64,000 bases of DNA from a virus, in the UHGV virus genome UHGV-0010228; one strand, 5' to 3'. This document shows positions 3,433 to 56,653 of this stretch, one piece after another (the stretch's first letter is position 1; every line of letters starts with the position of its first letter). The notes below the pieces were generated by a model. It did no database searches. It worked only from the letters and a program-made list of their open reading frames with translations, and was not told the origin of the DNA. The position numbers and the translations under genes were made by a program.

Positions 3433-3449
3433 TACTATAATTTCACTTT
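3433..3449 (-). promoter_or_regulatory. Conserved promoter-like motif (minus-strand ATATATTATTAAAGTGA) for the 3008..3400 locus
   Basis: One of at least 11 copies of the same 17-mer. A TATAAATA-like box and GGAGG follow it. Confidence 0.5.
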
Positions 3450-3466
3450 AATAATATATCAATGAA

Positions 3467-3502
3467 AAATAAAGATATTACGGTATATTCTATATATAGA
3501 AT
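3467..3502 (-). terminator. Terminator hairpin attacggtatattctata|tatagaatataccgtaat (repeat copy 1)
   Basis: 36-nt perfect palindrome downstream of gene 3532..4008. An identical copy lies at about 48056..48091. Confidence 0.6.
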
Positions 3503-3531
3503 ATACCGTAATTAATATAATGAAATTATAG

Positions 3532-4008
3532 TTAATTATTAGTTATAATTTCATATATCATGTCATCATGATAAGTCCCATACTTATCTCTCACAGCATC
3601 TTTGAGGACATGTTTGTTCCCGCCATATTTAGTCATGATTCTATCATAACCTTTACATGCTGGATTTCCACCAATCGCTCTCCATTCGATTCTATGGAAA
3701 CGATTAATGAGTTCATCTATCTTGCGATAGACATCACGTCCAACAATTATATTTCCTCTATCAAAAGAAATATACCCGAATCGAGATACATTTGATGAAT
3801 AATAATCAACAAAGTACTCTAAATACCCAATCAATTCTTTGGCTGAATTGATTATTGCAAATTGATAGTTGCCTTTATTTGGTTCATCATTTATTATTAT
3901 AGGTGAATTATATAATCCTCCCATATAATAAAAGAACTCATCAGTATAAAAATACTCTAGGCTTCTTTTATATATTTCCTCTTTATACAATATCGCTGGT
4001 ACTAACAT
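3532..4008 (-). CDS. hypothetical protein (158 aa)
   Basis: ORF with GGAGG RBS, the promoter motif upstream and a terminator downstream. Confidence 0.6.
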   Translation of the reverse strand: MLVPAILYKEEIYKRSLEYFYTDEFFYYMGGLYNSPIIINDEPNKGNYQFAIINSAKELIGYLEYFVDYYSSNVSRFGYISFDRGNIIVGRDVYRKIDELINRFHRIEWRAIGGNPACKGYDRIMTKYGGNKHVLKDAVRDKYGTYHDDMIYEIITNN

Positions 4009-4051
4009 AGTATTATTATTCCTCCTTATTATGTAAACTAGATGTATTTAT

Positions 4052-4068
4052 TCATTTTAATAATATAT
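4052..4068 (-). promoter_or_regulatory. Conserved promoter-like motif copy (AATATATTATTAAAATGA, followed by ATAAATACAT)
   Basis: Same motif with the same spacing to GGAGG and ATG as the other copies. Confidence 0.5.
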
Positions 4069-4081
4069 TAATAAAAAAAAA

Positions 4082-4110
4082 GATATTACGGATAATTTCT
4101 CCGTAATATC
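4082..4110 (-). terminator. Terminator hairpin gatattacgga...tccgtaatatc
   Basis: Downstream of gene 4121..4849. Shares the ATTACGG stem base with the 3467 and 48056 hairpins. Confidence 0.55.
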
Positions 4111-4120
4111 TTTAATTTAT

Positions 4121-4849
4121 TTACTCCATTTTCCCAGCGAAAACTAAAATGTCTAATACTTCATTATTATAAACATACCCAGCACACCTACAGCAATAAC
4201 GTGAATTATTTAATAATAAATGAATTGGATTGATTTTACCAGAACATTTAAATATATCTGAGATATGAAGTGTTCCACTCATAACACATAAATAACTCTT
4301 TGCCGTCTTAATTAACGAATAGGCATATCTTTTCGTTCGTTTTCCATCGAGGCTATTGAAGCCCCTGCACCTTGTTAAATCTATAGATATAACTGATATT
4401 AATGTTTTTACCATCTTAGCATATACCAATTTGAATTTTGCATCAATAATCGGTGAACGACGACCAATATCTTGATATTCATATTTAAGTGTTGCATAGT
4501 GATAAGTAAATGTCCAATGATAAATCATATATTCAGGTGTCGTAGCCGGAATTTGTATGCTTCGAAATTTGTTTGTCATTTTACGACACTTTCTTGGTTC
4601 ATCGAGTTTTGATTCGAACTCGTTTAAATCGTGTAATATATCTGCAAGTTTAATTGGAATCACACCACCAGCATCATTCATAGCTTTATCAAACTTTTCT
4701 TCTAAAGTTGGTATAACCTTAAGAAATGCCGTTTCCAAATTGTATTTTGGAGAGTCATCAGTCGTCTTATCTTCCTCTTTTTCATCATTAACTAACTGCG
4801 TTTCATCCTTTAACTGTAAATCACCCTTTAAAATATCTTCTTCTCTCAT
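4121..4849 (-). CDS. hypothetical protein (242 aa)
   Basis: ORF with GGAGG RBS. Confidence 0.65.
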   Translation of the reverse strand: MREEDILKGDLQLKDETQLVNDEKEEDKTTDDSPKYNLETAFLKVIPTLEEKFDKAMNDAGGVIPIKLADILHDLNEFESKLDEPRKCRKMTNKFRSIQIPATTPEYMIYHWTFTYHYATLKYEYQDIGRRSPIIDAKFKLVYAKMVKTLISVISIDLTRCRGFNSLDGKRTKRYAYSLIKTAKSYLCVMSGTLHISDIFKCSGKINPIHLLLNNSRYCCRCAGYVYNNEVLDILVFAGKME

Positions 4850-4891
4850 AATAATTTATCCTCCTTATTATGTAAATTAAATGTATTTATT

Positions 4892-4908
4892 CACCATAAT
4901 AATATATT
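4892..4908 (-). promoter_or_regulatory. Conserved promoter-like motif copy
   Basis: Minus strand reads ATATATTATTATGGTGAATAAATACAT...GGAGG. Confidence 0.5.
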
Positions 4909-4920
4909 TTTATAAAAAAA

Positions 4921-4952
4921 TTTAGAATATCGCAATATTGCGATATTCTAAA
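4921..4952 (-). terminator. Terminator: perfect palindrome tttagaatatcgcaatattgcgatattctaaa
   Basis: Follows gene 4971..5357 on the minus strand and is followed by a T-run on that strand. This ends the nrdD operon. Confidence 0.6.
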
Positions 4953-4970
4953 TTTCTATAACTTGATTTT

Positions 4971-5357: not shown

Positions 5358-5372
5358 AATAATTCCTCCTCT

Positions 5373-5840: not shown

Positions 5841-6156
5841 CTTTTATACCCTCGGTTTCCCGATATTTTAGTAGGGGAATAGACTATACAATACTATTTC
5901 TGATTATTTTTATGACAAAATCGACCTTTAGAATCTCGTGCCTTAAAACACAGAAATAGTTCTCTATTATAGTCGTTGAACGTCCATCCTATATTTCTAT
6001 AGATGTTTCGCTGCGTTTGATTACCCAATCCTTAATGATTTTACCATACCGATTCCGTTACTAATCGCCACTATCTATATCACTATGATAGCTTGGTTAT
6101 TAAGGCTCTAAGGGACTCCCCGCAGTTTAAGAGATTTAACGTGGACTATCTCGTTA
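5841..6156 (-). ncRNA. Group I self-splicing intron in nrdD (316 nt, no ORF)
   Basis: Internal guide GUCCAC (complement of + 6141-6146) pairs with exon end GUGGAU, with a terminal U-G. P-like element AACUGCGGGGAG, R element GUUCAACGACUA and S-like element UAUAGUCUA are present. The segment is GC-elevated and ORF-free. Confidence 0.8.
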
Positions 6157-8248
6157 ATCCACACGTGCGGCGTACCACTGTAAGTTTAGTATGATCACGA
6201 CATCCGCAATTAGGGCATTCCCAGTCTCCATCTTTTATGACTATCTCACCATCAAATCCGCAATTACCACAGTAATCGGATTTGGTGTTAAATTCTCCAT
6301 ATAATATATGATCGTATATGAACTTAATTAAAGCTTCTACTGCAGATAAATTATTTTTCATATTAGGTATTTCTACATATGAAATACAACCACCTGTACT
6401 TATATTCTGATATGGAGCTTCAAATTCAAATTTACTAAATGCATCTATTTCTTCTCTAACATCAATATGATAAGAATTTGTATAATACCCTTTATCGGTG
6501 ATATCTTTTATATCACCGAACTTTTCTTTATCTATTTTTGCAAATCTATAGCATAAAGATTCAGATGGTGTACCATATAATGCATATCCTAAATTCTCTT
6601 CTTTATTCCATTCTACAACTTTATCTTTCATATACTGTAAAACTTTAAGGGTAAATTCTTTTCCTTCTTTACTAGTATGTGATTTACCTAACATTGCTAT
6701 TGATAATTCATATACACCGATATAACCCAGAGATAATGTTGAATATCCACCAACTAATAAATCATCAATAGTATCTTCTGCATTCAACCTAGCTAATGCA
6801 CCATACATCCAATGTATAGGTGATGACTTAGCTTTAGTACCTCTGAGTGCTTTATATCTCAAATATAATGCTCTATGGCATAATTCAAGTCGTTCATCAA
6901 ATAACTTCCAGAATTTATCCATATCACCATTAGCAATTATACCTATCTGTGGTAAGTTAATACTTACTACACCCTTATTAAATCTACCTTCAAATTTATA
7001 ATTTCCATTTTCATCTTTCCATGGTGATAGTGCAGATCTACATCCCATAGGTGAGAACACATTTCCTTCATAATTCTGTCTCATTATCTTAGCACTGATA
7101 TAGTCCGGATACATTCTCTTAGCTGTACATTTAGCCGCTAAGTGTGTGAGATAATCATATTTACCACCTGTAAGATTATTATGCTCATCAAGCACATAGA
7201 TAAGCTTAGGAAATGCTGGTGTTATATATACACCATATTCATTCTTAATACCCTGATACCGCTGATTAAGAATAGCTTCAATTATCTGTGCAACTTCTTC
7301 AATATATGGATCATCTGGTTTAAGATTTAAGAAAATTGTAATAAATGGTGATTGACCATTTGTAGTCATTAATGAATTTAACTGATAATCAATAACCTGG
7401 ACTCCAGCTTTTAATTCTTTATCAACCATATCATCAACTATAGACTTTATAGTTTCTTCATCAATTTTACCATGTGATGATTCTCGAATTTGCTTATCAA
7501 ATTTCTCTCTTGATTTTCTAAGATACTTTCCCAAGTGTCTAATATCTACAGACTGACCACCATATTGTGAAGATGCAACTGCAGCAATTATCTGAGTCAT
7601 AATGGTACACGCAACTCTAAATGATTTAGGACTTTCAATCATCTTACCATTCATTACAGTACCATTATCAAGCATATCTCCTATATTTATGAGACAGCAG
7701 TTGATTATTGGTTGTAGAAAATAATCTGCATCATGGAAATGAATGATACCATCTTCATGAGCTTTTACAATATCTTTAGGTAATAAAAGTCTCTTAGTTA
7801 AATCTTTAGAAACTTCACCTGCTATTAAATCTCTCTGAGTAGAGGCTAAATATGCATCTTTATTTGAGTTTTCTTCCATAACATATTTATTATTATATCT
7901 AACTAATGATAATATCGACTCATCTGTTGTATTCTGCTCACGAACTAAATTTCTAGAATATCTATACGTAATATATTCTTTAGCAACAGGATATTCTTCA
8001 TTTACTTCATATCTAAGAATATTATTGATTACCTGCTCTTGAATATATTCAACATCAGCAATAAATTCAGGATCATCTGCAAGATAGGAATCAATATTAG
8101 CTTCTACATTAGAAGCTATTCTCTGAATTAATTTTTCGCTAAATCTAGCATTTTCAGGAACCTGTAAATTTGCTTTACCAATAGCGCTTGCTATCTTTTC
8201 TTTGTTGAAATCAACAATCTGACCATTTCTTTTACGAACTTTAATCAT
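6157..8248 (-). CDS. nrdD: Anaerobic ribonucleoside-triphosphate reductase NrdD, exon 1
   Basis: About 697 codons with a C-terminal Zn ribbon (CGNCG...CPNCGC). The sequence ...VVRRTCG runs into the intron. The annotated ORF's 'LTR*' tail is intron read-through. GGAAGGAGAA RBS. Confidence 0.85.
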
Positions 8249-8283: not shown

Positions 8284-8300
8284 TCATTTTTATAATATAT
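8284..8300 (-). promoter_or_regulatory. Promoter-like motif variant upstream of nrdD (ATATATTATAAAAATGA)
   Basis: Same motif family, 35 nt upstream of the nrdD RBS. Confidence 0.4.
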
Positions 8301-8439
8301 AAGTTATAAAAAGGTTAATAATTAATACAAAAACAAGTTTTAGATACTTGTCGGTTAATAAATTTATTACAAATACTATTTATATACATATTCAACAACA
8401 CCGTAATTGCTTGATAATACTCGGAAAGGAAGTGATTTA

Positions 8440-15716: not shown

Positions 15717-18700
15717 TTATAATGTAGCTATTTTATTATACATTGAATTTAGATTAGGATTCTTTAATGATTTTGCACTTTTTGCTCTACTTCCAGTAGA
15801 AATATTATTTGTCTTATTACCACCAATAATTGTAGTGTTACCACTATTTGTAATGTTAGTTGGACTAGAATTCTTACTGTCACCATACCACTTGTCAATA
15901 GTATTAGCAATAGTATCGAGTCTAGATTCAACTCCATCATTATTAGCATTAATAAATGTATTCTTATTAATAAATCCACCATTTTCAGAATTGCCTCCGA
16001 AGTATGGAGCATCTGGGTTTATATTATATCTCTTTGCCATATTAACATTTGCTATATTTAACTTCTTATTATAATCAGGCCCTAAACCTACTAAGCTATA
16101 TGATGCAGGATTGATCCATGACCCGTTTTTCTTTACACCATAATGTAAGTGGTTACCTGTAGACTTGCCAGTAGATCCAACAAGACCAACTTTAGCACCC
16201 TTAGCAACTCTAGCGCCCTTAGACACTAAGCGCTTACTCTGATGAGCGAAGTAATGTTGAGTTCCCTTACTATCTGTTACTACAACAAGATTACCAAATC
16301 CACCAGTACTACCAGGAGATTCCGATCTAGTAACAGTACCCGATACAGGTGTATAGATTGGAGTTCCAGCTGGTGCTGCAAAATCTATACCATTATGCAT
16401 CTTACGTTTACCGCTCTGTGGATCTGATCTATATCCGAATGGACTTGAAATTCTCGTGTACTTCAATGTTTTCTGAATGGCTTCTTTAGCATTATTACCA
16501 ACTACATTAACTGATGAACCAACTGAAGAGCCAGATAAAGAAGAAGATGATGACTTAGATGTAGTATTAGTGTTTGATGATTTTCCAGATGAGTATTTAG
16601 AATTTATCCAATCCCATAAATCTCCCATCTTTGATGCTTTCATTGCATTTCCAACACCTTCTGCATATCCACTTATCATTTCACCCCACGTGGAGTTACC
16701 ATATCCAATCGGAAGATCAATATCTCCCCAGCCATAGATATTTTTTCCACCAACAGAATCGTATTGTCCTAAATTATAATTTACATATAACCGCTTTAAT
16801 TTATTTTCATAATCAATTTTTGCCATCGGGATATTATTTGGATAATCATACGTTGATGTGCAGTATCCAGCATTAGCAACTGCGTGCATTGCATCATATG
16901 CTGTAGTTGCAGTTCTAGCACCACTATATAACTTACCCGAAAGCACATCCCAATATCTAACTACACTATCACCAATGGTATTATATTTAGCCAACTTACC
17001 TTTTGGCATTACACCAAACATATTATTACTACTGAGAGCTCCACCGGCTGATCCTAAGCTTGTTTCTTGAATCGCTTGCGCCAGCGTTAATGAAGGTGGT
17101 AATGATGTTGATCTGGCGTTATCTTGAGCAAATTTTGCAAGAATATTTAATCTTTCACTTAATGATTTCTTTGCCCACTGTCTTCCACTAACATTTAATT
17201 CAGCCGGTATAGTAATTGAAGATCCGTTAAAATCTACAATTCCCGTACTACCTAAGGTTTTACCATCTTCAGCAGTTTCATAGTCTGATGATACATCACT
17301 TTCCAATTCAGAAGCAATTGCTTCCCATGGATCTGTACCATTCACATATGCTGTCATATATGAACTAATAGCACCCGCAAGTCGCTTTAATTTTGTGAAA
17401 AGATTCTCGCCTTTTAACGAACCTAAAAAGTTCATAACTCCTTCTCTAGTATGCTCTAATAAGCCGGAAGCTAAAGATTCATCAGTTGCTGCAATACTAG
17501 ACATATCAACTCCGTTTACATAGTATTCAGAATTATCAACTCTTTCTTGCATATCTTTAATTTTTGAAGATGATAATCCCCAGTTTACGTAAATATATGA
17601 CAATCTAGTTCTCTCGTGCTGTTTTATTACACTTTTAGACTTATATGTAACATTTGTACCTGTTTCAGTTTCACCATCTTTAATTACTATCGAATATTTA
17701 TTATATTTTTTATTTATTGGAATTTCGACATATCTCCAATAATCTCTTAAAGTATAATATTTATCCCTATCTGCTGATTGCATTACTGTATCTACAAGTC
17801 TTCTTAATTCAGCATCAGTAATTTTAGATACTGGAACGTTTTTCTTTCCAATAGTAGCAACATTACATACATCTGTAGATTTATTAAAATAATCAATTTT
17901 TGTTATTGTAGTATCATTCGATCCAGTCGAACTTTTCCACTTTTTATATACATATTCATAGATATATCTAGTTCTAAAAATATTATCACCATAAGTATTA
18001 ACTTTCTTTCTCCAACTTAATGCTTCATATTTTTTATATCCTTCTACAATATATTTATCATATAACTTAAAATCGGATTTTTTGTAAGATAATATTAATG
18101 AATATAGCGCAGTATTTCCAATACCTGCTAAATCTTTAGTTTGTTCAGGGACTGGTGGAATAGATTTCTTAATTGCACAGAATTTATATGGATCCGCTAA
18201 ATACTTATTTTCAATATCTCTTGAAGTCAGCTTCGTTTTATTTGCTGCATTATATAATTTTGATGGTGCCGGCGGATTATAATTTGTAGTTGTTTTAGCT
18301 TCATTTTTCTTTGCAGTTGTAATATCTTTAACCAATTTTGATTTATTGGATAGCTTATTAAGGGTTGATGATATCAGTCCATACCCAAATGGTATATCAT
18401 ATGCAGTCTTTTTTGTTTTATACATATCTGGAATATTGATATTACCATAACCATATGACCATCCACCAGTTGCATTGTTGATGACTGATGATGCTGAATA
18501 ACTCTTAGTCTTACCATCCATTGGATCTTTGATAATGATATTACCATTTGAATCCATACCTGATGCTACAACTATATGACCAGCTGATGTGAATGGATCA
18601 TTTGTATGATCTCCTCTACCGGCTACTATTGTAGGTACTCCAGATTTTATATTTGTATATAATTCGGATCCTCTAGTTACTTGATGAGGCTTTAATCCCA

Positions 18701-40724: not shown

Positions 40725-40736
40725 ATAAACAAATTA

Positions 40737-40772
40737 TGAATATAAGATATTGTCTAATATCTTATATTCATA
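40737..40772 (+). terminator. Terminator hairpin after the RNAP gene
   Basis: tgaatataagatatt-gtcta-atatcttatattca. Confidence 0.55.
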
Positions 40773-40848
40773 ATTCTATATAAATTTTATGAATATATTA
40801 TTTTGATGATAATATTATATTTCTTAAACAGTGAAAGGAGAATTAAAA

Positions 40849-41925
40849 ATGGAAACTACGAGAAAAATTACACACAAAACGATAAAGAACGGTGAGGTTC
40901 TTGTAGACTCAACAAACACAGAAGTTACTACAATTGAAACGGGTGATAATTATCATAGAGAAATCACAATTTCAAAAAGCGAATCCGGGGAAAATGAATT
41001 TGTTTCATTTAAAGGGGTTCGTCATTTCTCCGATAATTCTTATCGAGATGAATCATATTATATTACTAACGAATCATTAGTTGGAAATGTCTCAGATGTT
41101 ACAGATATTGACGAAGGTGATTATCATATTACCATTGAAGAGCACTACTATTGTATCATTGAGGGTAATTACTTAAATAATATTCCTGAAACTCTTCCTG
41201 AAGATTCCTTAATTCTTGAACGTGTGATGGTTACTAGTAAATCTAAAACCCCTTCAGGAATTGAATATGCTGCAACTGCAGTAACTGAATGTAAGACTAC
41301 TGAAGGTATGGATGAGTATAACTATATGGTATCTACACATACTTTACCAACAGATACCGAATCACCATTTGGTGGTAAAACGCAGCTTATTGCAGTTAAT
41401 TCACTTGAACCTGGAAGAACTAGAGTTAGATTAGTATGTGTTACTGTACCTGATGATGATTCTAATCCTGAATTATTATTTGCATTTGAAAATGTAGGTA
41501 GTAAGGATTCAGATCCTTCAGCATTTATTTCAACACATATTAATTATGATCAGATGGATTCCGTTTTAAATATATCTATAACAGATCTTGAAGATGGAAA
41601 TGTGTATATTGAATTAAAGAATGAAAACGTTGAAATCGAAGTTGGAGTATCGTTAGAAGAATTCAAGAGTAGAAAAGTTACAGATATTAATGGTGCAATA
41701 TATCTCGAATCTAATATTGGGGATGATAGTAGAAACACACTTGAACTTATCGGTGATAGTGGGTTCGCTAAGATCGAACAGATCATCTCATTAATAACAT
41801 GGGATAAAGTGATTGAAAAAATCAATGATGTTTTGAAGTATATTAATAACAGTGAAATTGCAAATATAACTTTCATGTTTGAGGACGGTGAAGCACATTT
41901 TGATCCTGATTATATTCAGGCATAA
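40849..41925 (+). CDS. hypothetical protein (about 358 aa)
   Basis: ATG at 40849 with GAAAGGAGAA RBS (the listed GTG at 40831 is unlikely). A + strand copy of the promoter-like motif lies at about 40783-40800. Confidence 0.65.
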   Translation: METTRKITHKTIKNGEVLVDSTNTEVTTIETGDNYHREITISKSESGENEFVSFKGVRHFSDNSYRDESYYITNESLVGNVSDVTDIDEGDYHITIEEHYYCIIEGNYLNNIPETLPEDSLILERVMVTSKSKTPSGIEYAATAVTECKTTEGMDEYNYMVSTHTLPTDTESPFGGKTQLIAVNSLEPGRTRVRLVCVTVPDDDSNPELLFAFENVGSKDSDPSAFISTHINYDQMDSVLNISITDLEDGNVYIELKNENVEIEVGVSLEEFKSRKVTDINGAIYLESNIGDDSRNTLELIGDSGFAKIEQIISLITWDKVIEKINDVLKYINNSEIANITFMFEDGEAHFDPDYIQA

Positions 41926-41991: not shown

Positions 41992-42493
41992 CTGAAAATA
42001 TTTTGATAGATTTTTAAACGATATATTACTCAGATGAATCTTTCGTTTCATAAGAGTTTATATAGAAATATTTCTATATAAACTCTTATTCCTAGTTGTA
42101 TATAAATGAGCTTATATAAATATAAATATTTATATAAGTAGATAGATATTAGAATTTATATATAATCTATATAGAGTTTATAGAGCTTTTATATATAAAT
42201 ATAGTAGATATTATATATATTTATATAAATAGAAAATAAATTATAAATAGTTATGAATTTTATTAAAGAATATTATTTACAGTTATATAAATAAATCTAT
42301 ATAAATAAATCTATATAAATATTTCAATACTCAATAAATATAAAAATACTCTTTAATAAATATATTATATAATAGAATATAAATTATATCCGATATAAAA
42401 ATACCCTACCCTGACGGCATCCGAGCAATATATCTTCGATATAATGTTATGGGGTATTTTTAAGTTTTCAACCCCCGAAAGGAGTCAATTAAA

Positions 42494-43006
42494 ATGAAAT
42501 TTTACAGAGCAGATTATGGTGCATACACATTAGCAATTTCAGAAAAGGAAAAATATGCTAGAAAGTATGCAGAAGATATGAGATGTCTATCTTCAAATAG
42601 TTCAGATAATAAGTCATATACTATTAAAGAAATAGATACAACATATGATGAATTAATGAATAATGATTTAGAAGGAAGATTAGTTCAGAAAATGGGTAAA
42701 GGATTATATCTTACATATGAAGATATATATCTATTAGATAAAGAATCTTCCAACTTTATATCTTTATATGAAAATACAATCAAATCTCTACAAGAATTAG
42801 CATATTATAGTTCAAAGATACCTTCTAATACAGGATTAACAGAAAAATTTAAAGATCTAAGAAGTATAATGGTAGATTACAATTCTAATTTTCAGAAAGC
42901 AAAATTCTCAGCTGCAGTACAACACAACTCACCAGTATTTTCTGAAAATATAGATGAATATATCTTTTATGTATTCGGATCTAATGAATTAAAATGTTCA
43001 AATTAA
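42494..43006 (+). CDS. hypothetical protein (170 aa)
   Basis: GAAAGGAG RBS. Terminator hairpin at 43023..43058. Confidence 0.65.
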   Translation: MKFYRADYGAYTLAISEKEKYARKYAEDMRCLSSNSSDNKSYTIKEIDTTYDELMNNDLEGRLVQKMGKGLYLTYEDIYLLDKESSNFISLYENTIKSLQELAYYSSKIPSNTGLTEKFKDLRSIMVDYNSNFQKAKFSAAVQHNSPVFSENIDEYIFYVFGSNELKCSN

Positions 43007-43848: not shown

Positions 43849-44976
43849 ATGAGAAAAGGTATAATCTTAAAGAATAGTGGTAAATATAGTATCAAATCTT
43901 TACCAAAATTAATTCCAAAAAGAAATAAATTAGATAAGATTAAGTATATCTTATTACCAATAATGGGAGATATGTATAATATATACTTACCATTAATACC
44001 AACTGAATTAATGTATTCTACAAAAATTACAGTTAATATGATATTAGGCACATATTCTGTTGACTATGAAACTGAAGAGATCATATACTTAGATGAATTA
44101 TATGATGATAGAGAATTTGATGATTATATATCGTTTATAAATTATATTTATACTATATATAAATCAGATGGATTCAATATTGTATTTTCATCATTAAAAT
44201 CAGACTCATTTAATGTTGAAATATTTGAATTCTTAAAAGTTACAAGTCTGGATATTAAATTTTATAAAGATAATGAATTAAAAGATAAAATCTTTTATGA
44301 ATCTGAAGATCCAGATTATCAAAATTATTATATAAATGGAGTTGAAGCTATAAATCAAGATTTAATATCGTTATTAGATAAAATAATAGTTCCAACGTAT
44401 AATCCACATAGTCAACCAAAAAGATTGGAAAGTATATTATTTAATGATTTAGGATATGAATTCTCACCAATAAATGATTTAAAAGATAATCATATTTATT
44501 GCGATTTTGTATTATATCCAATATATGAATTTAATAGTTTCATAATGATATCTCCAGATGAAATAGAAAATCTCAGCAAAAATTATTCATCTAGGTTATA
44601 CATCTTAACATTGCCCAAAATAATTAAGTATTATAATGATCCTCAAGTAATGAATAATATTAAAAATCTAATAATACGAGATGAAATATCTGGTGAGTTG
44701 GATGTATGGGATTACTTTGAGTATTCAATATTATATTATGATCGTATATTAACTTTAATACCATATATAGAGTATATTTGCTTATATTTAGAATATATAT
44801 ACATGAATTATCTTGATGATAATATTAATCCTGGAGAAAGCAATATACTTATTAAAGTTAATAGTGATGGAAGAAGATTATCTGATTGTGATTACTATCT
44901 TTTATCAGAATTAAAAGATCGTAATAATATAAATTCAATTATATCTAAACTATTAGAAGGAGAAGACAATGATTAA
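43849..44976 (+). CDS. hypothetical protein (about 375 aa)
   Basis: ATG at 43849 with TAGGAGGAAA RBS. The core motif TTAATATATTATTAAT lies immediately upstream. Confidence 0.65.
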   Translation: MRKGIILKNSGKYSIKSLPKLIPKRNKLDKIKYILLPIMGDMYNIYLPLIPTELMYSTKITVNMILGTYSVDYETEEIIYLDELYDDREFDDYISFINYIYTIYKSDGFNIVFSSLKSDSFNVEIFEFLKVTSLDIKFYKDNELKDKIFYESEDPDYQNYYINGVEAINQDLISLLDKIIVPTYNPHSQPKRLESILFNDLGYEFSPINDLKDNHIYCDFVLYPIYEFNSFIMISPDEIENLSKNYSSRLYILTLPKIIKYYNDPQVMNNIKNLIIRDEISGELDVWDYFEYSILYYDRILTLIPYIEYICLYLEYIYMNYLDDNINPGESNILIKVNSDGRRLSDCDYYLLSELKDRNNINSIISKLLEGEDND

Positions 44977-47441: not shown

Positions 47442-47981
47442 TTAGTAATGCACTACTCCTCCAAGTGCATCCATGATAGGGTCGAGCTTCCGACCAATGT
47501 GCTTATATATACGCATATGGTCGTTAATTTCTGGAGTGAATTTTCCTCCAGAAACTTCAAGCTCCTTCTGGATCAGTTTTTCCAGCTGATCCATAGCTCC
47601 TATAAGAGCCTTTGCTTTTTCGTTGAGTTCTTCGTTATTCATCTTTGAGTAAGAAGAATTCGTACTTGAAAAAGCTTTCTTTGCTTTGTCTCTTGTAAAG
47701 CAAAGTAAAGATTTGAGTTTCTGAGCTGCCGGTGGAAGGATCTTAGCTGCAGCATATGCTGTACCATATGTTACAGCACAAAGGCCGGCATATGCTCCTA
47801 ATACAGCAGCCGTTACTTTTATAGCATCTGCAGGAGTTGCCTTAAGGTCAGTTGTTTTTTCAACTTCCTCGTTCTCGATCTGTTCTCGAGCCTCAACGAC
47901 TCTGCGATCCTGAAGATTTGATAATAAATTCTCTTCAGTTGTAGTTGTAGTATTAACCTGATTCATCTTATTTTTTCTCAT
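47442..47981 (-). CDS. hypothetical protein with a hydrophobic segment (179 aa)
   Basis: AAGGAGG RBS. Promoter motif upstream. Confidence 0.6.
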   Translation of the reverse strand: MRKNKMNQVNTTTTTEENLLSNLQDRRVVEAREQIENEEVEKTTDLKATPADAIKVTAAVLGAYAGLCAVTYGTAYAAAKILPPAAQKLKSLLCFTRDKAKKAFSSTNSSYSKMNNEELNEKAKALIGAMDQLEKLIQKELEVSGGKFTPEINDHMRIYKHIGRKLDPIMDALGGVVHY

Positions 47982-48021
47982 AGTATTTTCCTCCTTATTA
48001 TACTATATGAGTTGTATTTAT

Positions 48022-48038
48022 TCACTTTAATAATATAC
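48022..48038 (-). promoter_or_regulatory. Conserved promoter-like motif copy (GTATATTATTAAAGTGAATAAATACA)
   Basis: Upstream of gene 47442..47981. Confidence 0.5.
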
Positions 48039-48055
48039 TAATAAAAAAAAAAGAA

Positions 48056-48091
48056 ATTACGGTATATTCTATATATAGAATATACCGTAAA
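48056..48091 (-). terminator. Terminator hairpin, identical repeat copy 2 (attacggtatattctatatatagaatataccgtaa)
   Basis: Identical to 3467..3502 over 35 nt, and continues the identity through ...taatataatgaaa. Confidence 0.6.
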
Positions 48092-48114
48092 TAATATAAT
48101 GAAAACAATTCATA

Positions 48115-48366: not shown

Positions 48367-48492
48367 TTTATCTACCTGTTAATTCTTTTCTTATAGCATT
48401 ATAACCATCATTAACTAACCGAGTAGTAATGGTTGTAAAGAATGCTGTGATTATAGCTGTTAATGCTATAATCCCTATTTTCTTCCATCCCA
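48367..48492 (-). CDS. small membrane protein (41 aa)
   Basis: GGAGGTTACTATT-ATG. Sequence MGWKKIGIIALTAIITAFFTTITTRLVNDGYNAIRKELTGR. Confidence 0.45.
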
Positions 48493-48517
48493 TAATAGTA
48501 ACCTCCTATGTATTTAT

Positions 48518-48534
48518 TCATATTAATAATATAT
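48518..48534 (-). promoter_or_regulatory. Conserved promoter-like motif copy (ATATATTATTAATATGAATAAATACAT directly before GGAGG)
   Basis: Upstream of small gene 48367..48492. Confidence 0.5.
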
Positions 48535-48578
48535 TGAAAAAAATAAAGTATAATAAGTGCATTGAAGCACTCACGCTT

Positions 48579-48794
48579 TTATTTGCGTGAGTGCTTTTTT
48601 CTTCTCATATATTTGGATATCTTCTGATATCCAAATATAATTACTGCTTCTGATAGGAGTATTCCTACTCCTATTATAATTGTCTGGAAATCTGCGCCGC
48701 CAATGCAGCAGCAGATGCCGACTACAGTTATTGCGAATATGAGTATGGACAGTGTCCATACCCATATTCTTTCAATTGGAGTTGTGTTTTTCAT
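48579..48794 (-). CDS. small membrane protein (71 aa, two TM helices)
   Basis: ORF 48579..48794 preferred over the overlapping 48571..48765 frame. A strong hairpin (gcactcacgc/gcgtgagtgc) overlaps its 3' end. Confidence 0.5.
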   Translation of the reverse strand: MKNTTPIERIWVWTLSILIFAITVVGICCCIGGADFQTIIIGVGILLSEAVIIFGYQKISKYMRRKKHSRK

Positions 48795-48795
48795 T

Positions 48796-48963
48796 TTAAC
48801 ACCCCCAATTGTTATGTAAGAGATTTATATTCATCTCTTCCTGACGAAGCTGCTCTGCCTGAAGGCGCTGCTGCTCCTCTTCCATTAATTTGTGGGCTTT
48901 CTTAATAAGCCCACCGCCACCTTTCTTTTCAGTCTCTCTAACTTCTTTAAATCTAATTCTCAT
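48796..48963 (-). CDS. small protein (55 aa, MRIRFKEVRE...), tandem paralog B
   Basis: GAAAAGGAGGAATAACATC-ATG RBS. The listed 88-aa ORF is an over-extension. Confidence 0.5.
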   Translation of the reverse strand: MRIRFKEVRETEKKGGGGLIKKAHKLMEEEQQRLQAEQLRQEEMNINLLHNNWGC

Positions 48964-48967
48964 GATG

Positions 48968-49111
48968 TTATTCCTCCTTTTCATCATATCCCATAAGTTC
49001 TTTATAAAGGCGTAATGCTTCTTCAGAGAAGCCACCCTGTGAAGATTTTTTGTTTTCTTCACGTTCTTTCACCTCTATTATCTCTCTCACTTCTCTAATT
49101 TTTATTCTCAT
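48968..49111 (-). CDS. small protein (47 aa, MRIKIREVRE...), tandem paralog A
   Basis: GGAGGAAATACT-ATG RBS, with the promoter motif upstream. The N-terminus is homologous to paralog B. Confidence 0.5.
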   Translation of the reverse strand: MRIKIREVREIIEVKEREENKKSSQGGFSEEALRLYKELMGYDEKEE

Positions 49112-49158
49112 AGTATTTCCTCCTTTATTATACACTATGATTATAACTTCACTTTAAT

Positions 49159-49175
49159 AATATATGAATATACAA
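49159..49175 (-). promoter_or_regulatory. Conserved promoter-like motif copy
   Basis: ATATATTATTAAAGTGA upstream of the small-gene pair. Confidence 0.5.
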
Positions 49176-49234: not shown

Positions 49235-49879
49235 ATGGAAATGCCAAATATAGAATACACAGGAGATATATCAAAATTCATAACTACTGAAGATGATATG
49301 TATAATAATATAATGTATTATAAAGATAATGATTTCTTTATGGATTCAATGAATTATTCTAAATTCATAAAGGGATGTGAAAGATTAGTTAGAACTTCTA
49401 AGGACTATTCTAAATTCGTTAGTGTGATAAAGAATGAATTTGGTATCGACTATTGTCAGGTCTCACCAAAGATACATGATGTAGATACTCAAATTGAAAT
49501 GCATCATGGACCATTATTCACGTTATATGATATATGTGAAGTAATAACTAATTATTTCTTAATGTCTAATTTTAAAGTAAATTCATTTAGAATAGCAAAT
49601 CAAGTAATGCAAGAGCATTGGGATCTTAGAGTACAAGTAATAATGTTATCCACTACAAATCATGAAGCAGTTCATAATAGAGATATATTCATAAACTATA
49701 ACCAGGCAATTGGTGATATTGATTCATTCATTAAGCGATATACGCCATATTTATCAGATGAGCAGAAATATAAGATCTGGAATTACTTTAATCTTTGTAA
49801 TAACAATCCGGCGTTTGCTAAGAGTTTTGATAGAGGTATATTAGATCTTGATTATGTTAAAAAATATATAAAGTTGTAG
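49235..49879 (+). CDS. hypothetical protein (214 aa), paralog of 57247..57948; possible diverged HNH-like motif
   Basis: AAAGGAGG RBS. IEMHHGPLFTLYDICEV...NHEAVHN aligns with IEIHHEPFTLFDIVQTV...HDLVHAD in the paralog. Confidence 0.6.
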   Translation: MEMPNIEYTGDISKFITTEDDMYNNIMYYKDNDFFMDSMNYSKFIKGCERLVRTSKDYSKFVSVIKNEFGIDYCQVSPKIHDVDTQIEMHHGPLFTLYDICEVITNYFLMSNFKVNSFRIANQVMQEHWDLRVQVIMLSTTNHEAVHNRDIFINYNQAIGDIDSFIKRYTPYLSDEQKYKIWNYFNLCNNNPAFAKSFDRGILDLDYVKKYIKL

Positions 49880-50978: not shown

Positions 50979-51611
50979 TTAGAGGTCTTCTTTATCCGCT
51001 ACAGGAGTAGGAGCTTTGTAAGGGTCGAAAATAACTTCATTTCGATATACTCCTATAGCATCTTCAAGATTAATCTTTTTGCTTACAAATGCAAATGATC
51101 CTCGATTATTAGTTATTTCTGATAAGTCAATATTATTTACAGATTCACCATCAATAATATCTGTAATAATATTCTTTATATAACCATAATGCCGACGAAT
51201 GTTTTCGCCTTCTTTAACAGATATCATTACAAAATCTGTACTATTAATATCAACATTATATGGCCCATGTATTGTATCGAAAGTGAATACAAAGTCGGAT
51301 TCTTTATTTCTAGGACTTGGTATTCTTCCATAACGAATAAATACTCTCTCTGCAGATATGATATCTGAGAGTAATATTGTACGAGGAATTGTAAGATGTG
51401 TTGGTCCTTCTTCAGACCACTGAACATTAGATTCTAATGTAACTTCCTTTTTTTCTTCATTTATGATTACATTACATATAGATGCTATCAATTCCATCCC
51501 ATTGTTTAATCTAAAATGATATGTGCATGATGATGAAATGAATCCTGATATTGGCTGATCTTCCTTAAATACAGGAATATTCCATCCCTTTCTAACAGTA
51601 GCTGATGCCAT
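50979..51611 (-). CDS. hypothetical protein (210 aa)
   Basis: GAGAGGAGATTAAC-ATG. Confidence 0.6.
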   Translation of the reverse strand: MASATVRKGWNIPVFKEDQPISGFISSSCTYHFRLNNGMELIASICNVIINEEKKEVTLESNVQWSEEGPTHLTIPRTILLSDIISAERVFIRYGRIPSPRNKESDFVFTFDTIHGPYNVDINSTDFVMISVKEGENIRRHYGYIKNIITDIIDGESVNNIDLSEITNNRGSFAFVSKKINLEDAIGVYRNEVIFDPYKAPTPVADKEDL

Positions 51612-51706
51612 GTTAATCTCCTCTCTATAAAAACTTTCTTTAAAAATAAAATATTAATAAGTTATTTACATTGTAATAATATAATATTAGAGAGGAGACT
51701 CATTAA

Positions 51707-52296: not shown

Positions 52297-52698
52297 TTAA
52301 TTATTTTCCTTCATAGCTTTCTTAGCTTCTTTAGCAGCCTTACGTCTAGCAAAGAATCCTCTAAGACCAGTCTTCTTTACTGGTGTTAAATCTTTGCCCT
52401 CTTCCTTAAGTTCTTTAATCCTTTCAGTATCAAGTGGCTTCATTTCAGATTCCTCCTCCTTTTTTTCCATGTTATTTAAATTTTTTATTTTATTCTTTTC
52501 GAGTATGATATGAACTTCATTATATAAAGCACCATCTAATTCCTTAAGACGAACATGCATATCCTTGCTAATCGTTGTTTTAGATACGTTAAATTCCTTA
52601 GATGCTGCAAGCATTGTTGATTTATGATTAACAATCCACTTAGCTTCGTCAATAACCCGCTTATCAATAACTTCACTAAATACAAATTCTTTTTCCAT
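52297..52698 (-). CDS. SpoIIID-like helix-turn-helix transcriptional regulator (133 aa)
   Basis: ASKEFNVSKTTISKDMHVRLKELDGALYNEVHIIL resembles SpoIIID (IAKEFGVSKSTVHKDLTERLPEINPDLANEVKEIL). Lys-rich C-terminus. AGGAGGAGTAATTTTC-ATG. Confidence 0.55.
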   Translation of the reverse strand: MEKEFVFSEVIDKRVIDEAKWIVNHKSTMLAASKEFNVSKTTISKDMHVRLKELDGALYNEVHIILEKNKIKNLNNMEKKEEESEMKPLDTERIKELKEEGKDLTPVKKTGLRGFFARRKAAKEAKKAMKENN

Positions 52699-53459: not shown

Positions 53460-54157
53460 AGAAAACGATCAAGATCGTCAGTAAGCCCAAACGAATACTC
53501 ATCTTTGTGCTTTTTCTTCTTATCTTTCTTTTTCTTTTTCTTATCCATCTTATCATCTTCATCATGATGTTTATCCTTTTTATCTTTATCTTTTTTACCT
53601 TTAGATACTTTATCTTCTAAGTCAGATATTCTATTGGATACCTTATTTAAATCTTCCTTAGAAAGCTTCTTTCCTAAAATTTTCTTATTCTCTTTAAGTA
53701 CGTCTTCCATATATATAAACTGTGGAAGATTCTTAAATAATTTTTTATATTCATTTAAGAATCTTATTCCCATAGCTTTATATACTTTATTAGGTAATAC
53801 TATAAATACATTAATTTCAGGAATTGGTTTGTTTGCATTAGATAATGCAAACATTGTTTTTACCGCCTTAATCATTGAAGCTTTAACTCTACGATTATCA
53901 AAATAATCATCAATTATATCTTCAACCTTATCAGGATCATAATCGTCGTCGTCATCATCTTCTGTTAAGATTTTAATTAATTTTCTAGGCGGTGTAAAAT
54001 TCCCATCTGAAGTGCAATGGCTAAATGTATCACTAATTGTTTTAGCTGTAGATACTGAAGATCCTGTATCTTCTCCATCTATTATGAAATAATCATAATC
54101 TGGAAGGATCTTCTTCGCCATCTTTTCAAAACTCTTTTTCTTACAAATATAAATCAT
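53447..54157 (-). CDS. hypothetical protein with poly-Asp tract and Lys-rich tail (236 aa)
   Basis: TAGGAGGTAAATAGT-ATG. Confidence 0.6.
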   Translation of the reverse strand: MIYICKKKSFEKMAKKILPDYDYFIIDGEDTGSSVSTAKTISDTFSHCTSDGNFTPPRKLIKILTEDDDDDDYDPDKVEDIIDDYFDNRRVKASMIKAVKTMFALSNANKPIPEINVFIVLPNKVYKAMGIRFLNEYKKLFKNLPQFIYMEDVLKENKKILGKKLSKEDLNKVSNRISDLEDKVSKGKKDKDKKDKHHDEDDKMDKKKKKKDKKKKHKDEYSFGLTDDLDRFLWSD

Positions 54158-54158
54158 A

Positions 54159-54965
54159 CTATTTACCTCCTATAGTACTTTCAATATTAATTAAATCTGG
54201 AAGCTTGAAACCATTTAACATTTCCATAGTTTCCATCTCTAACTTATCATAATGATTTGCCATTTTCTGAATTATTCTATGTGGCGGAACTTGCAATCTA
54301 CATTTTGGGTTATTACATTCAAAACGTGTATAATTTCTATCCCATTCCAATTTAGCACCACATCTTGGGCATCTAAATAATTCAGTTTTATTTTCTAATG
54401 TTAATGGATATAAATATCCATAATCAAGAATACGAATTTCATCACCTTCAGGTGTTTCAATATATCCATAATTAGCAGAATTTTTTACTGTAAATCCAAT
54501 ATCATCAAATATAAACGCTGACGATATTTGTGATAACATATCTTTGATTACTGGCTCATTATATATAAATTGCTCCTGATCCATAACATTTACATACTGT
54601 TGACATAATATTAACATATTAGTCTCATATGATTTTGCTAAGAATCTAGGCATTTCTGCTGATCGTTTAAATTCCGTAAAATTATCAACGATCCCTCGTC
54701 TATCAAGAGCGACTTTAAATACAAAATTATTTTTCAGTAATCCAATTCTATTAGTACCAGTACCTAATTCATCAAATCCATATGGTTCACATATATATTT
54801 TATAATTTCTGCTCTAGCATTATTATCCATTATATCAACTGATAATGCCTGATAAAATAATGCTTTTAATATCTCATCAGGGAAATATTCCTTGATGAGA
54901 CTTTCTGGCACCTCTTTCTCGACAGTTTTATTAAAATCAAGATCGAGGTTTGGTAATTTAAACAT
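54159..54965 (-). CDS. hypothetical protein with C-terminal Zn ribbon (CPRCG...CNNPKC) (268 aa)
   Basis: AAAGGAGATTTATA-ATG. Confidence 0.6.
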   Translation of the reverse strand: MFKLPNLDLDFNKTVEKEVPESLIKEYFPDEILKALFYQALSVDIMDNNARAEIIKYICEPYGFDELGTGTNRIGLLKNNFVFKVALDRRGIVDNFTEFKRSAEMPRFLAKSYETNMLILCQQYVNVMDQEQFIYNEPVIKDMLSQISSAFIFDDIGFTVKNSANYGYIETPEGDEIRILDYGYLYPLTLENKTELFRCPRCGAKLEWDRNYTRFECNNPKCRLQVPPHRIIQKMANHYDKLEMETMEMLNGFKLPDLINIESTIGGK

Positions 54966-54977
54966 TATAAATCTCCT

Positions 54978-56195
54978 TTAATATCCTAAATCCAAATCAG
55001 AATCTGCACTCATTCCATAATCATATTCACCAATTTCATAATCATCGATATCTATATCTGATAATCTGAATGACATTTCACCATTACGGAAGAATGACCT
55101 TCGATGACCATTTAGTACGTTCATGATACGACTATCTGATTCAAATTCTTCTTTGGCTCGTTTCTTGGCTTTCTTCTGACGCTTTTTAAGTTTCTTCCTC
55201 TCTTTCTTAGTCATTGGTGTTACTCCACATTCTGCACCAATCTTCTGACGAAGCATTTTAGCACCAGATTTACCAAGATCCTTCATCTGATCTCCAATAT
55301 CAAGGCCACATTTATACATATATGTGGCAACTTCAATCTTATCGATATCAGACTGACGGACTAATCTACCATTCATTACTTGAACCGTATCCATAGCTTC
55401 AAGTCTAGCTATTTCACTTTCTGTCATACCATCATATTTATGCATTTCTTCATAAATTGCAATAATTGAATCTGGATCTTCAGTTTCGCGTCCTTTCTGA
55501 TCAAATCGAATTGGTTTATTAGAATTGATGAAATCAATGATAGCATCAGTATCTGCCATACCAGAATATTTAAGATAAATATTCTTCTTCCTCTTCTTTC
55601 TTTCCTGCCGTCTATATTCATATTCCATTTCTTCTGGAACATAATCCATATCAAATACTTCATCAGGAAGATCTAATACTGCAGGATCTACAGGATGTGT
55701 TTCAGCATAACGCTTCATCACAAATCCTTTCATTTTATTAAAGAATCTATCATCATCTCTCCATACTGGAATTGGAGAATTTAATAACTTCTTATTCTTC
55801 TTCTTCATCTTTAATTTAGGTTCTGGTGGAATATATATATCTAATACACCTCCATCAACTAAAGATTCAACAAAGTCCAGAGGACCATACATATCTGTAA
55901 TCTTTGCAATATATTCATCGTATATATCAATAGCATCAGCCCAATCAAAATAGTCACCATATTTGCGACGAATTGTGCGAGCTTCACTATCATCAATTGA
56001 AGATGTTGATACTGATCTTGTCAAATAATCGTCATCTTCAAAGTTGTTATGTTGAACACTTAACACGAAATCTGGGAGCTCAATCAAATCTGTTTTTGCG
56101 AGCTTCATTATCTGCCTAGCTCTTTCGTGTAAATCTTCAATATCATAATCATCTGGATTAGCAACATCCATAGGATTATCTATCATATCAAACAT
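54978..56195 (-). CDS. hypothetical protein (405 aa)
   Basis: TAGGAGGTTAGGTCTAA-ATG. Confidence 0.6.
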   Translation of the reverse strand: MFDMIDNPMDVANPDDYDIEDLHERARQIMKLAKTDLIELPDFVLSVQHNNFEDDDYLTRSVSTSSIDDSEARTIRRKYGDYFDWADAIDIYDEYIAKITDMYGPLDFVESLVDGGVLDIYIPPEPKLKMKKKNKKLLNSPIPVWRDDDRFFNKMKGFVMKRYAETHPVDPAVLDLPDEVFDMDYVPEEMEYEYRRQERKKRKKNIYLKYSGMADTDAIIDFINSNKPIRFDQKGRETEDPDSIIAIYEEMHKYDGMTESEIARLEAMDTVQVMNGRLVRQSDIDKIEVATYMYKCGLDIGDQMKDLGKSGAKMLRQKIGAECGVTPMTKKERKKLKKRQKKAKKRAKEEFESDSRIMNVLNGHRRSFFRNGEMSFRLSDIDIDDYEIGEYDYGMSADSDLDLGY

Positions 56196-56331
56196 TTAGA
56201 CCTAACCTCCTATATAATATTTTATTCCCATTCTTCATTGTAATAATATATTAGCAAAAAATAAACTTAAGAATTGATAAGGATAGGAGCTAGTAGCGTT
56301 TAACTACTAGCTCCCTATCGGAGAATAAATA

Positions 56332-56595
56332 CTATGAGATTGAAGATTCTTCAGAATTTATCTCTGAAATATCTTCCGGATTTATATCAACATCTGAATT
56401 AGATGTAGATGTCGCTTCCGCTTCAATATTGTCAGATTCGATGTTACCATCTCCACCATACTCTGGATCGTCAGCTGGGCAACACGCATAGTCTGGTGCT
56501 GATCCATCCTTAGAGAATATACCTTTTGCGATCCACAGTCCTGCGCATACAATTGCAATACCGATAATTACTAAAACCTTTTTAATTCCTGACAT
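56332..56595 (-). CDS. small secreted/membrane-anchored acidic protein (87 aa)
   Basis: N-terminal hydrophobic helix then a D/E/S-rich tail. AAGGAGGACATAAAA-ATG. Confidence 0.55.
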   Translation of the reverse strand: MSGIKKVLVIIGIAIVCAGLWIAKGIFSKDGSAPDYACCPADDPEYGGDGNIESDNIEAEATSTSNSDVDINPEDISEINSEESSIS

Positions 56596-56636
56596 TTTTA
56601 TGTCCTCCTTTATAAGTACTTATAAGATGTATTTTA

Positions 56637-56653
56637 TCACATTAATAATATAT
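56637..56653 (-). promoter_or_regulatory. Conserved promoter-like motif copy
   Basis: ATATATTATTAATGTGATAAAATACAT upstream of gene 56332..56595. Confidence 0.5.

Follow-up and report, generated by a model that had tools for sequence, protein, structure and literature searches.

Forty-one early promoters of the Bacillus jumbo phage AR9 were mapped by differential RNA sequencing (dRNA-seq) and primer extension, and their consensus is AAATATATATTAT-(6N)-G+1 (Lavysh et al. 2017, PMC5312081). Because AR9 early transcripts were present within 5 min and did not need protein synthesis, they were assigned to the virion RNA polymerase (RNAP) that is injected, while the AR9 late motif, AACA-(6N)-T-A/G, in which the last base is the start, is read by a second, non-virion RNAP (PMC5312081). 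RNA sequencing of phage phiR1-37 confirmed 56 A/dU-rich conserved promoters of the early type (Leskinen et al. 2016, PMC4848604), and the start 6 nucleotides (nt) downstream of the consensus element is conserved in phiKZ and phiR1-37 (PMC5312081). A TATATTAT motif was also found upstream of 29 genes in the Staphylococcus jumbo phage MarsHill (bioRxiv 10.1101/2020.12.14.422802), and a review concluded that all RNAP-encoding jumbo phages have a conserved AT-rich block of ∼10 nt near -10 before early operons (PMC7598289). Here we describe a recurrent intergenic motif in 64,000 nt (64 kb) of UHGV virus genome UHGV-0010228; this whole stretch is referred to below as the window. An earlier note, made from the sequence of the window alone, had drawn attention to the motif. 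It is very probable (roughly 0.88) that the copies of the motif are early promoters of the AR9/phiR1-37 virion-RNAP class in an uncultivated jumbo phage with a genome of ∼256 kb.

The phage genome (256,540 bp, ∼30% G+C) was seen in several metagenomes, and exact-protein matching located relatives on contigs of 231 kb, 224 kb, and 107 kb. The G+C content within the window was 27 to 35%. No tRNA genes were found in the window, and a megablast search with 20 kb of it against the phage database returned no close relative.

Recurrence and consensus of the motif

The 17-mer that the earlier note had reported, ATATATTATTAAAGTGA, had 20 matches at no more than 3 mismatches in the window, compared to 4.5 expected, and none of the shuffled sequences reached 20. 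Sixteen copies were aligned on their invariant G and used as the training set for a weight matrix spanning -19 to +2, with which the 64 kb was scanned at three thresholds. The counts below show that the recurrence is real.

12 bits: 19 matches observed, 1.25 under the first-order Markov null
15 bits: 17 matches observed, 0.4 under the first-order Markov null
18 bits: 15 matches observed, 0.13 under the first-order Markov null

All of the matches of at least 14 bits were in noncoding DNA, which makes up 13% of the window, and each was oriented toward a gene on the same strand, apart from 30983(-), which is without a nearby open reading frame (ORF). An AGGAGG-like ribosome-binding site (RBS) and a start codon followed 21 to 93 nt past the invariant G, mostly at 37 to 45 nt, as the earlier description of an RBS and ATG behind the motif had implied. 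One match of 13 bits, 39206(-), is within an intron-like insert of the polymerase beta gene and was treated as chance.

An unbiased count of 8-mers over the 100-nt upstream regions of 55 ORFs gave the same core. TATATTAT headed the list after Shine-Dalgarno words, with 17 genes versus 2.4 expected. This block was unchanged in all 16 training sites and in 805(+), and the weak site 57173(-) has TATATTAA instead. All 18 sites had a G exactly 7 nt past the block, and in 17 of them the next base was A. Among the 60 occurrences of TATATTAT in total, 23 had a correctly spaced G; 17 of these 23 are among the 18 sites listed below, and one more is the candidate 42375(+).

The consensus is T-rich from -25 to -20, reads A-T-T-R from -19 to -16 and ATATATTAT from -15 to -7 (invariant from -14), and continues with TA at -6/-5, a variable triplet, and TGA from -1 to +2, so that it can be written [T-run]-A-T-T-R-ATATATTAT-T-A-N3-T-G-A. 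Most of the copies have this 21-nt motif alone in common, with unrelated flanks. The conserved putative promoter is about 21 nt long (-19 to +2), shorter than the ∼28 nt proposed initially.

Predicted early promoters in the window

In the following list, bit scores are from the window-trained matrix, +1 is the predicted G, and the 5' untranslated region (UTR) is counted from that G. Lengths of gene products are in amino acids (aa).

737-757 (-): predicted early promoter; +1 G738; 22.5 bits; RBS and ATG 21 nt downstream
786-806 (+): predicted early promoter; +1 G805; 17.8 bits; intergenic; gene 845-1510, start codon 40 nt downstream
3443-3463 (-): predicted early promoter; +1 G3444; 29.0 bits; 130-aa ORFan 3008-3400; 5' UTR 44 nt; terminator 3477-3512 directly upstream
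4052-4072 (-): predicted early promoter; +1 G4053; 26.8 bits; 158-aa ORFan 3532-4008; terminator 4079-4113 upstream
4891-4911 (-): predicted early promoter; +1 G4892; 20.9 bits; 242-aa gene 4121-4849; strong hairpin at ∼4917-4954 upstream
8284-8304 (-): predicted early promoter; +1 G8285; 20.7 bits; NrdD gene 6146-8248; kept in L012, L031, and L033
30982-31002 (-): predicted early promoter; +1 G30983; 26.0 bits; no gene found downstream; kept in L024
34433-34453 (-): predicted early promoter; +1 G34434; 23.9 bits; 169-aa gene 33832-34341; 5' UTR 93 nt; hairpin 34465-34492 upstream
35918-35938 (-): predicted early promoter; +1 G35919; 27.7 bits; 201-aa gene 35272-35877
40789-40809 (+): predicted early promoter; +1 G40808; 20.0 bits; 358-aa gene 40849-41925; hairpin 40733-40774 upstream; kept in L024
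43808-43828 (+): predicted early promoter; +1 G43827; 24.0 bits; 375-aa gene 43849-44976; GGAGG and ATG 22 nt downstream
48022-48042 (-): predicted early promoter; +1 G48023; 25.9 bits; 179-aa ORFan 47442-47981
48518-48538 (-): predicted early promoter; +1 G48519; 19.5 bits; 41-aa ORF 48368-48493; 5' UTR 26 nt; terminator 48564-48597 upstream
49149-49169 (-): predicted early promoter; +1 G49150; 26.7 bits; small ORFs in 48579-49111; 5' UTR 39 nt
51668-51688 (-): weaker predicted early promoter; +1 G51669; 16.8 bits, 9.7 in leave-one-out scoring; 210-aa gene 50979-51611; 5' UTR 58 nt
56235-56255 (-): predicted early promoter; +1 G56236; 22.8 bits; 405-aa gene 54978-56195 and genes downstream; 5' UTR 41 nt
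56637-56657 (-): predicted early promoter; +1 G56638; 27.7 bits; 87-aa gene 56332-56595; 5' UTR 43 nt
57172-57192 (-): weak candidate early promoter with core TATATTAA; +1 G57173; 14.8 bits; ∼160-aa gene ending at 56675; hairpin 57199-57234 upstream
42356-42376 (+): uncertain AR9-flavored candidate, AATAAATATATTAT-ATAATA-G; 14.4 bits when scored with the AR9-trained matrix but <10 with the window-trained one; 119 nt before gene 42494-43006

The sites at 4052, 4891, 8284, 34433, 35918, 48022, 48518, 56637, and 43812(+) had already been listed correctly in the earlier note. The coordinates 3433 and 49159 were both off by 10 (3443 and 49149), and the plus-strand copy placed at about 40783 spans 40789-40809. 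The good copies at 737(-), 786-806(+), 30982(-), 51668(-), and 56235(-) and the weak one at 57172(-) had been overlooked.

The promoter at 737(-) is predicted to drive a metallophosphatase-DnaB operon that continues beyond the left end of the window, and the gene directly behind it is the orthologue of AR9 g002, the operon of which has an annotated early promoter in AR9. The promoter at 786-806(+) is divergent from 738(-) and was kept in the relatives L031 and L033. Gene 6146-8248 codes for the anaerobic ribonucleotide reductase NrdD (Pfam, 7e-177).

The strong predicted promoter at 30983(-) is followed by ∼430 nt (30555-30983) without an RBS-preceded ORF, in which there is a long hairpin at ∼30900-30970; close to the end of this stretch is a T-run, immediately ahead of the leader of gene 29902-30501. 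Its transcript is a candidate early noncoding RNA or long structured 5' UTR; comparison of the 30983 leader with Rfam gave no credible match at E values up to 1. The leaders 28897-28955(-) and 30502-30560(-), upstream of genes 28339-28896 and 29902-30501, are paralogous and consist of a terminator T-run and then ATTATACATTATATTAATA...TATAATATAAGGAGG. They had been described as degenerate forms of the motif, but they score <10 bits, fit neither the early motif nor the late one, and represent a separate repeated leader. Between these genes, 29216-29901 is an AT-rich, ORF-poor region of ∼685 nt in which the word TATATTAT recurs several times, on both strands, and short inverted repeats are present.

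Correspondence with AR9 and phiR1-37 early promoters

The comparison set for AR9 consisted of the 34 early promoters annotated in KU878088. These and the copies in the window have in common ATATATTAT at -15 to -7, a 6-nt spacer, G at +1, A at +2, and a preference for T at -1. The TATATTAT block was present in 31 of the 34 annotated AR9 promoters and in 7 of the 9 annotated phiR1-37 promoters, and one AR9 early promoter reads ATATATTATTAAAGTGAA, which is exactly the 17-mer of the earlier note. The likeness to AR9 extends to short AT-rich 5' UTRs with a strong Shine-Dalgarno sequence, orthologous operons (metallophosphatase-DnaB and gyrB), and a late motif, AACA-N6-TA. However, positions -19 to -16 are AAAT in AR9 and ATTR in the window, and -6/-5 are mixed A/T in AR9 and T-A in the window, which suggests that promoter specificity has drifted relative to AR9.

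Annotated promoters of phiR1-37 (NC_016163), such as ATTGATATATTATTAAATTGA, ATTAATATATTATTAAAATGA, and GCTGATATATTATTTTAGTGA, each straight after an annotated rho-independent terminator, are nearly identical to those of the window. They follow ATT[G/A]ATATATTATT-N4-TGA, with T at both -6 and -1 and GA at +1/+2, and their layout is also the same: a rho-independent terminator, at once the promoter, then the RBS and the gene. When the window-trained matrix was run on 41 kb of phiR1-37, 7 of the 9 annotated promoters were recovered with no extra matches. The same matrix found no match in 11 distant RNAP-encoding jumbo-phage or viral loci (∼200 kb in all). The predicted promoters match those of phiR1-37 much more closely than those of AR9. 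The resemblance to AT-rich early promoters of jumbo-phage RNAPs that the earlier note had suspected is thus borne out by the AR9 and phiR1-37 consensus sequences and by the encoded homologue of the AR9 virion RNAP beta subunit.

The motif was not confined to the window. Four more sites, one of them upstream of gyrB, were found in 17 kb of flanking DNA that was reached through identical proteins. Relatives at 86 to 96% nucleotide identity kept all of the sites, with substitutions upstream of -15. A pattern scan of IMG/VR returned phiR1-37 and several uncultivated contigs of 235 to 285 kb with 2 to 5 matrix matches per 3 to 15 kb. The exact 26-mer (motif plus ATAAATACA) had no match in IMG/VR, and a protein scan of IMG/VR with the beta fragment found only relatives of 23 to 31% identity, none with the motif.

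A virion RNAP beta gene in the window

ORFs 36004-39159 and 39537-40724 jointly span the PHROG profile of the RNA polymerase beta subunit from end to end (7e-79 and 1e-77), and both map to AR9 g189, which is annotated as a virion RNAP subunit. In tblastn searches the second ORF was 32 to 36% identical to genes of the Staphylococcus jumbo phages PALS_2, S6, and MarsHill, and also of Listeria phage LPJP1, Yersinia phage phiR1-37, and Bacillus phage PBS1. The beta subunits of AR9 and this phage are ∼28 to 32% identical. Together, the polymerase homology and the relatives indicate an uncultivated jumbo phage of the AR9/phiR1-37 group with its own multisubunit RNA polymerases, and the beta product is predicted to be part of the enzyme that reads the early promoters.

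36004-40724 (+): virion RNAP beta gene; exon 1, 36004-39128; insert, 39129-39541; exon 2, 39542-40724

The gene is split by an ORF-less insert of ∼413 nt (39129-39541), and P0021, the 1434-aa allele of a related genome, is uninterrupted. Over the junction P0021 reads ...DRTAM|SYKQ..., so that exon 1 ends in U and the insert in G, which is the pattern of group I introns. Comparison of the insert with Rfam gave no Intron_gpI or other credible match at E values up to 1, and an Rfam scan of the whole window gave nothing at the gathering threshold. AR9 g189 has several introns.

Predicted late promoters and gene classes

The sequence AACA-N6-TA was present 15 to 60 nt upstream of start codons in 9 copies versus 0.75 expected (12-fold; P = 4.5e-8), and the base at +2 was A in all nine (AACA-N6-TAA). 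None of the control patterns was enriched to a similar extent: they gave no copies with a 5-nt spacer, three with a 7-nt spacer, none with TG, and 0 to 6 with shifted or altered tetramers, compared to ∼1 expected. By analogy with AR9, we infer that transcription would start at the last A of AACA-N6-TA.

35968-35979 (+): AR9-type predicted late promoter AACATTTCATTA; upstream of the virion RNAP beta gene; +1 A 35979
Other predicted late sites (+1 A): 1929(+), 11392(+), 49207(+), 58766(+), 62090(+), 58726(-), 50918(-), 27729(-)
Late candidates with a 7-nt spacer: 46366(+), 32132(-), 15656(-)

The two motifs were associated with different genes, and no gene in the window is behind both. Genes with the early motif include NrdD, the metallophosphatase-DnaB operon, gyrB (just outside the window), and many ORFans; the AR9 orthologues of early-motif genes (g002 to g007 and g024) are likewise behind annotated early promoters. 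Pfam assigned no family to ten small proteins of early cassettes, so function is of no help for these genes. Genes with the late motif include those for virion RNAP beta, a giant protein of 3,987 aa, and homologues of the AR9 virion proteins g281, g260, and g204, the tape measure protein. The giant ORF (15717-27680, minus strand) has C39-like peptidase, glucosaminidase, and M23 peptidase domains near its C terminus, and its N-terminal region is weakly similar to g204.

The proposed mechanism and its alternatives

If the copies are early promoters of the AR9/phiR1-37 class, then a multisubunit RNA polymerase made up of split beta/beta' homologues would be carried in the particle and injected along with the phage DNA. 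It would recognize the AT-rich ATATATTAT at -15 to -7, with flanking preferences for A-T-T-R at -19 to -16, T-A at -6/-5, and T at -1, and would begin transcription at the invariant G, seven bases past TATATTAT, requiring neither host RNA polymerase nor new protein synthesis. Each promoter would give rise to a short 5' UTR (mostly 37 to 45 nt) with a strong GGAGG and to one or a few early genes, and most units would be closed by a hairpin and U-run terminator right ahead of the next promoter. Virion-type genes, including the gene for virion RNAP beta, would instead be under the control of AACA-N6-TA, the motif that the non-virion RNAP reads in AR9.

This mechanism draws on the motif and its positions, orientation, and enrichment, on the polymerase homology, on the match to AR9 and phiR1-37 promoters, and on the separation of gene classes. 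Several points weigh against it. The start site, the reading enzyme, and the early timing are what we infer by homology with AR9 and phiR1-37. Beta is the only polymerase subunit gene within the window; no other virion or non-virion subunits were seen there. By analogy with AR9, the genes for some non-virion subunits would be predicted to follow early promoters. Cross-scoring of AR9- and window-trained matrices recovered only 11 to 12 of 34 and 7 to 9 of 18 sites at 10 to 12 bits; as the phiR1-37 sites reach full scores, we attribute this partial recovery to flanking preferences that differ between lineages. In addition, the TAnnnT at -6 to -1 resembles a sigma-70 -10 hexamer, so that some minor use by the host polymerase is conceivable. 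The last point concerns the chemistry of the DNA. AR9/PBS1, phiR1-37, and S6 are phages with uracil-containing DNA. A dUTPase-like gene (L022 2007-2453, minus strand) is ∼6 kb to the left of the window start (TIGR00576, 3e-20, 72 bits, below the NCBIfam cutoff); no AR9 homologue of it was found, and it casts doubt on whether this genome carries uracil like AR9 and phiR1-37. Given this gene, the phage possibly represents a lineage with AR9-type early and late promoters yet thymine DNA; if so, uracil is not essential to the AR9-type promoter code.

It could be proposed that the copies are host sigma-A promoters, with the TAnnnT at -6 to -1 as the -10 element and the upstream ATATATTAT as an AT-rich extended or UP-like element. 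T at -6 (15/16), A at -5 (13/16), and T at -1 (16/16) do mimic T1, A2, and T6 of TATAAT, and a consensus scan gives two sites as TTGATA/TTCATA-17-TATAGT/TATAAT. However, only 2 of the 18 sites reach a 10-of-12 match to the sigma-70 consensus, and sigma-70-like sites were not enriched over shuffled sequences (61 versus 69.9 expected; 136 versus 143.6). The earlier note had rejected a sigma-A -35/-10 pair, and the finding that no -35 hexamer is conserved agrees with this; the region 17 nt upstream contains only the T-run of the preceding terminator. Furthermore, the invariant TATATTAT would sit in the spacer, which is not conserved in sigma-A promoters, there is no TG at -15/-14, and the invariant G and A suit a start 7 nt past the block instead of a -10 element. 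Phages of Yersinia, Bacillus, and Staphylococcus have the same motif, and their early transcription is independent of the host enzyme. It seems very unlikely that the copies are primarily host promoters. The chance is also slight, in our judgment, that the motif is mainly a dispersed recombination or operator repeat, or a regulator site, that came to be upstream of genes by cassette duplication. Some copies are part of repeats that extend over 84 nt (93% identity) or 70 nt (84% identity), and cassette gain and loss is bounded by repeated modules, but most copies consist of the 21-nt motif alone in unrelated flanks, and the strict orientation, the distance to the RBS, and the identity with mapped promoters of other phages fit a promoter. 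A role in recombination would supplement promoter function, not supplant it.

The earlier note had regarded the motif as bipartite and usually followed by ATAAATACAT, and the explanation built on this is that a late sigma factor of the gp55 type reads the second half as a T4-late-like TATAAATA box. AATAAATA is indeed present after the motif at four sites, and the related TAAAATACAT is present at one. However, ATAAATACAT was exact in just 4 of the 18 sites (4053, 4892, 48023, and 48519) and partial in 1 or 2 more, so neither "usually" nor "bipartite" describes it. It is at +2 to +11, downstream of the invariant G that is equivalent to the mapped AR9 start, and it reads AATAAATA, not TATAAATA, the first base being A, not T. 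It is part of a leader and terminator module of 85 to 110 nt that is repeated between cassettes, not of the promoter. The genes in question are not late genes but comprise small ORFans and replication or nucleotide genes, and late-type genes have AACA-N6-TA. A T4-late-like box can practically be dismissed, and virion-RNAP early promoters of the AR9/phiR1-37 class remain the preferred explanation.

Terminator-promoter modules and cassette turnover

Terminator-like sites were enriched in the window (14 versus 2.0 expected; 19 versus 3.5 expected), and a hairpin plus T-run was directly upstream of ∼10 of the 18 early promoters. The proposal that each cassette ends in its own hairpin terminator therefore holds for about 10 sites but not for all.

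3477-3512 (-): terminator hairpin and T-run closing the upstream cassette; forms a repeated module with the promoter
4079-4113, 48057-48090, 48564-48597, 34465-34492, 40733-40774 (+), 57199-57234: equivalent hairpins

Terminator-promoter-leader modules of ∼85 to 110 nt were repeated around unrelated ORFan genes (3385-4140, 4850-4960, and 47965-48110). Module 3442-3525 was 93% identical to 48021-48104 over 84 nt, and 4012-4081 was 84% identical to 4851-4920 over 70 nt. Paralogy of the cassette genes was rejected as the cause of the similar leaders, as there were no BLASTP matches between them. The sequence ATAAATACA, which was exact in 4 of the 18 sites and partial in 1 or 2 more, starts with A, not T, and occupies +2 to +11; it is read as the putative initially transcribed sequence of a duplicated regulatory module.

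Three cassette insertions or deletions, a small sample, were detected (L024 9000-9921, L031 12300-16200, and L033 12090-14310). The 158-aa gene cassette 3532-4008 is lacking in the relatives L033 and L031, one relative has an extra 371-aa cassette bounded by modules, and L024 has an extra three-gene cassette between duplicate copies of the 35918-35955 module. Promoter-early stem-loop cassettes (PeSLs) of T4-type phages (PMC2839356, PMC4122927) are similar in that composite terminator and early-promoter modules are beside single ORFans and the boundaries of insertions and deletions are in the modules. However, the early promoters in PeSLs are sigma-70 promoters read by the host, and the promoter here is of the virion-RNAP type. 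At a little below even odds, we tentatively suggest that the modules may also serve as substrates for recombination by which single ORFan early genes are inserted, deleted, and exchanged among related jumbo phages. If this is the case, they are mobile regulatory cassettes of a PeSL-like kind in which a promoter for a phage polymerase takes the place of the host sigma-70 promoter.

Host and other genes

A SpoIIID-like gene, similar to a sporulation regulator, is located at 52297-52698(-) (TIGR02844, 3.8e-14, below the family cutoff). NrdD, the SpoIIID-like gene, and the ∼30% G+C content hint at an anaerobic, spore-forming Firmicute host, and this gene content suggests that the host may be an anaerobic Firmicute. 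The sole paralogous protein pair found in the window, 49235-49879(+) and 57247-57948(-), is 31% identical, and its members are homologues of the AR9 paralogues g242 and g261.

Comparison with known systems

The promoter class described here is already known, and current understanding is not overturned; what is new is the uncultivated phage that carries it. One consequence is practical, in that ∼18 transcription units in the window can be annotated as early and 9 as late from sequence alone. More diverged pairs of promoter and polymerase are also of value because they can help to locate the promoter-recognizing subunit by covariation; no such subunit of the virion enzyme had been identified as of a 2020 review (PMC7598289).

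Phages of the phiKZ type (Chimalliviridae) build a nucleus-like compartment, and no evidence for a phiKZ-like compartment was seen in this phage. The likeness to these phages is in the AT-rich block of ∼10 nt near -10 that is read by an injected multisubunit RNAP, and the difference is that the consensus sequence varies from phage to phage in that group (PMC7598289).

The MarsHill-type Staphylococcus phages have the nearest polymerase beta in the phage database (∼36% identity), and sites such as AAATATATATTATAAAAGTGAA were present in the 41 kb of MarsHill examined. However, the upstream part of the MarsHill sites is the AR9-like AAAT, and the promoters there are predictions only. phiR1-37, with promoters nearly identical to those of the window, differs in its Gram-negative host and in a beta subunit that is only ∼32% identical, and the late AACA-N6-TA, which is clear in this phage, is not reported for phiR1-37 (PMC5312081). 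If the assignment is correct, the two-polymerase code of AR9 and phiR1-37, with its early and late motifs, reaches a deeply divergent jumbo phage with an RNAP beta of ∼28 to 36% identity, and phages of Yersinia, Bacillus, and Staphylococcus share a conserved virion-polymerase promoter with the lineage described here.

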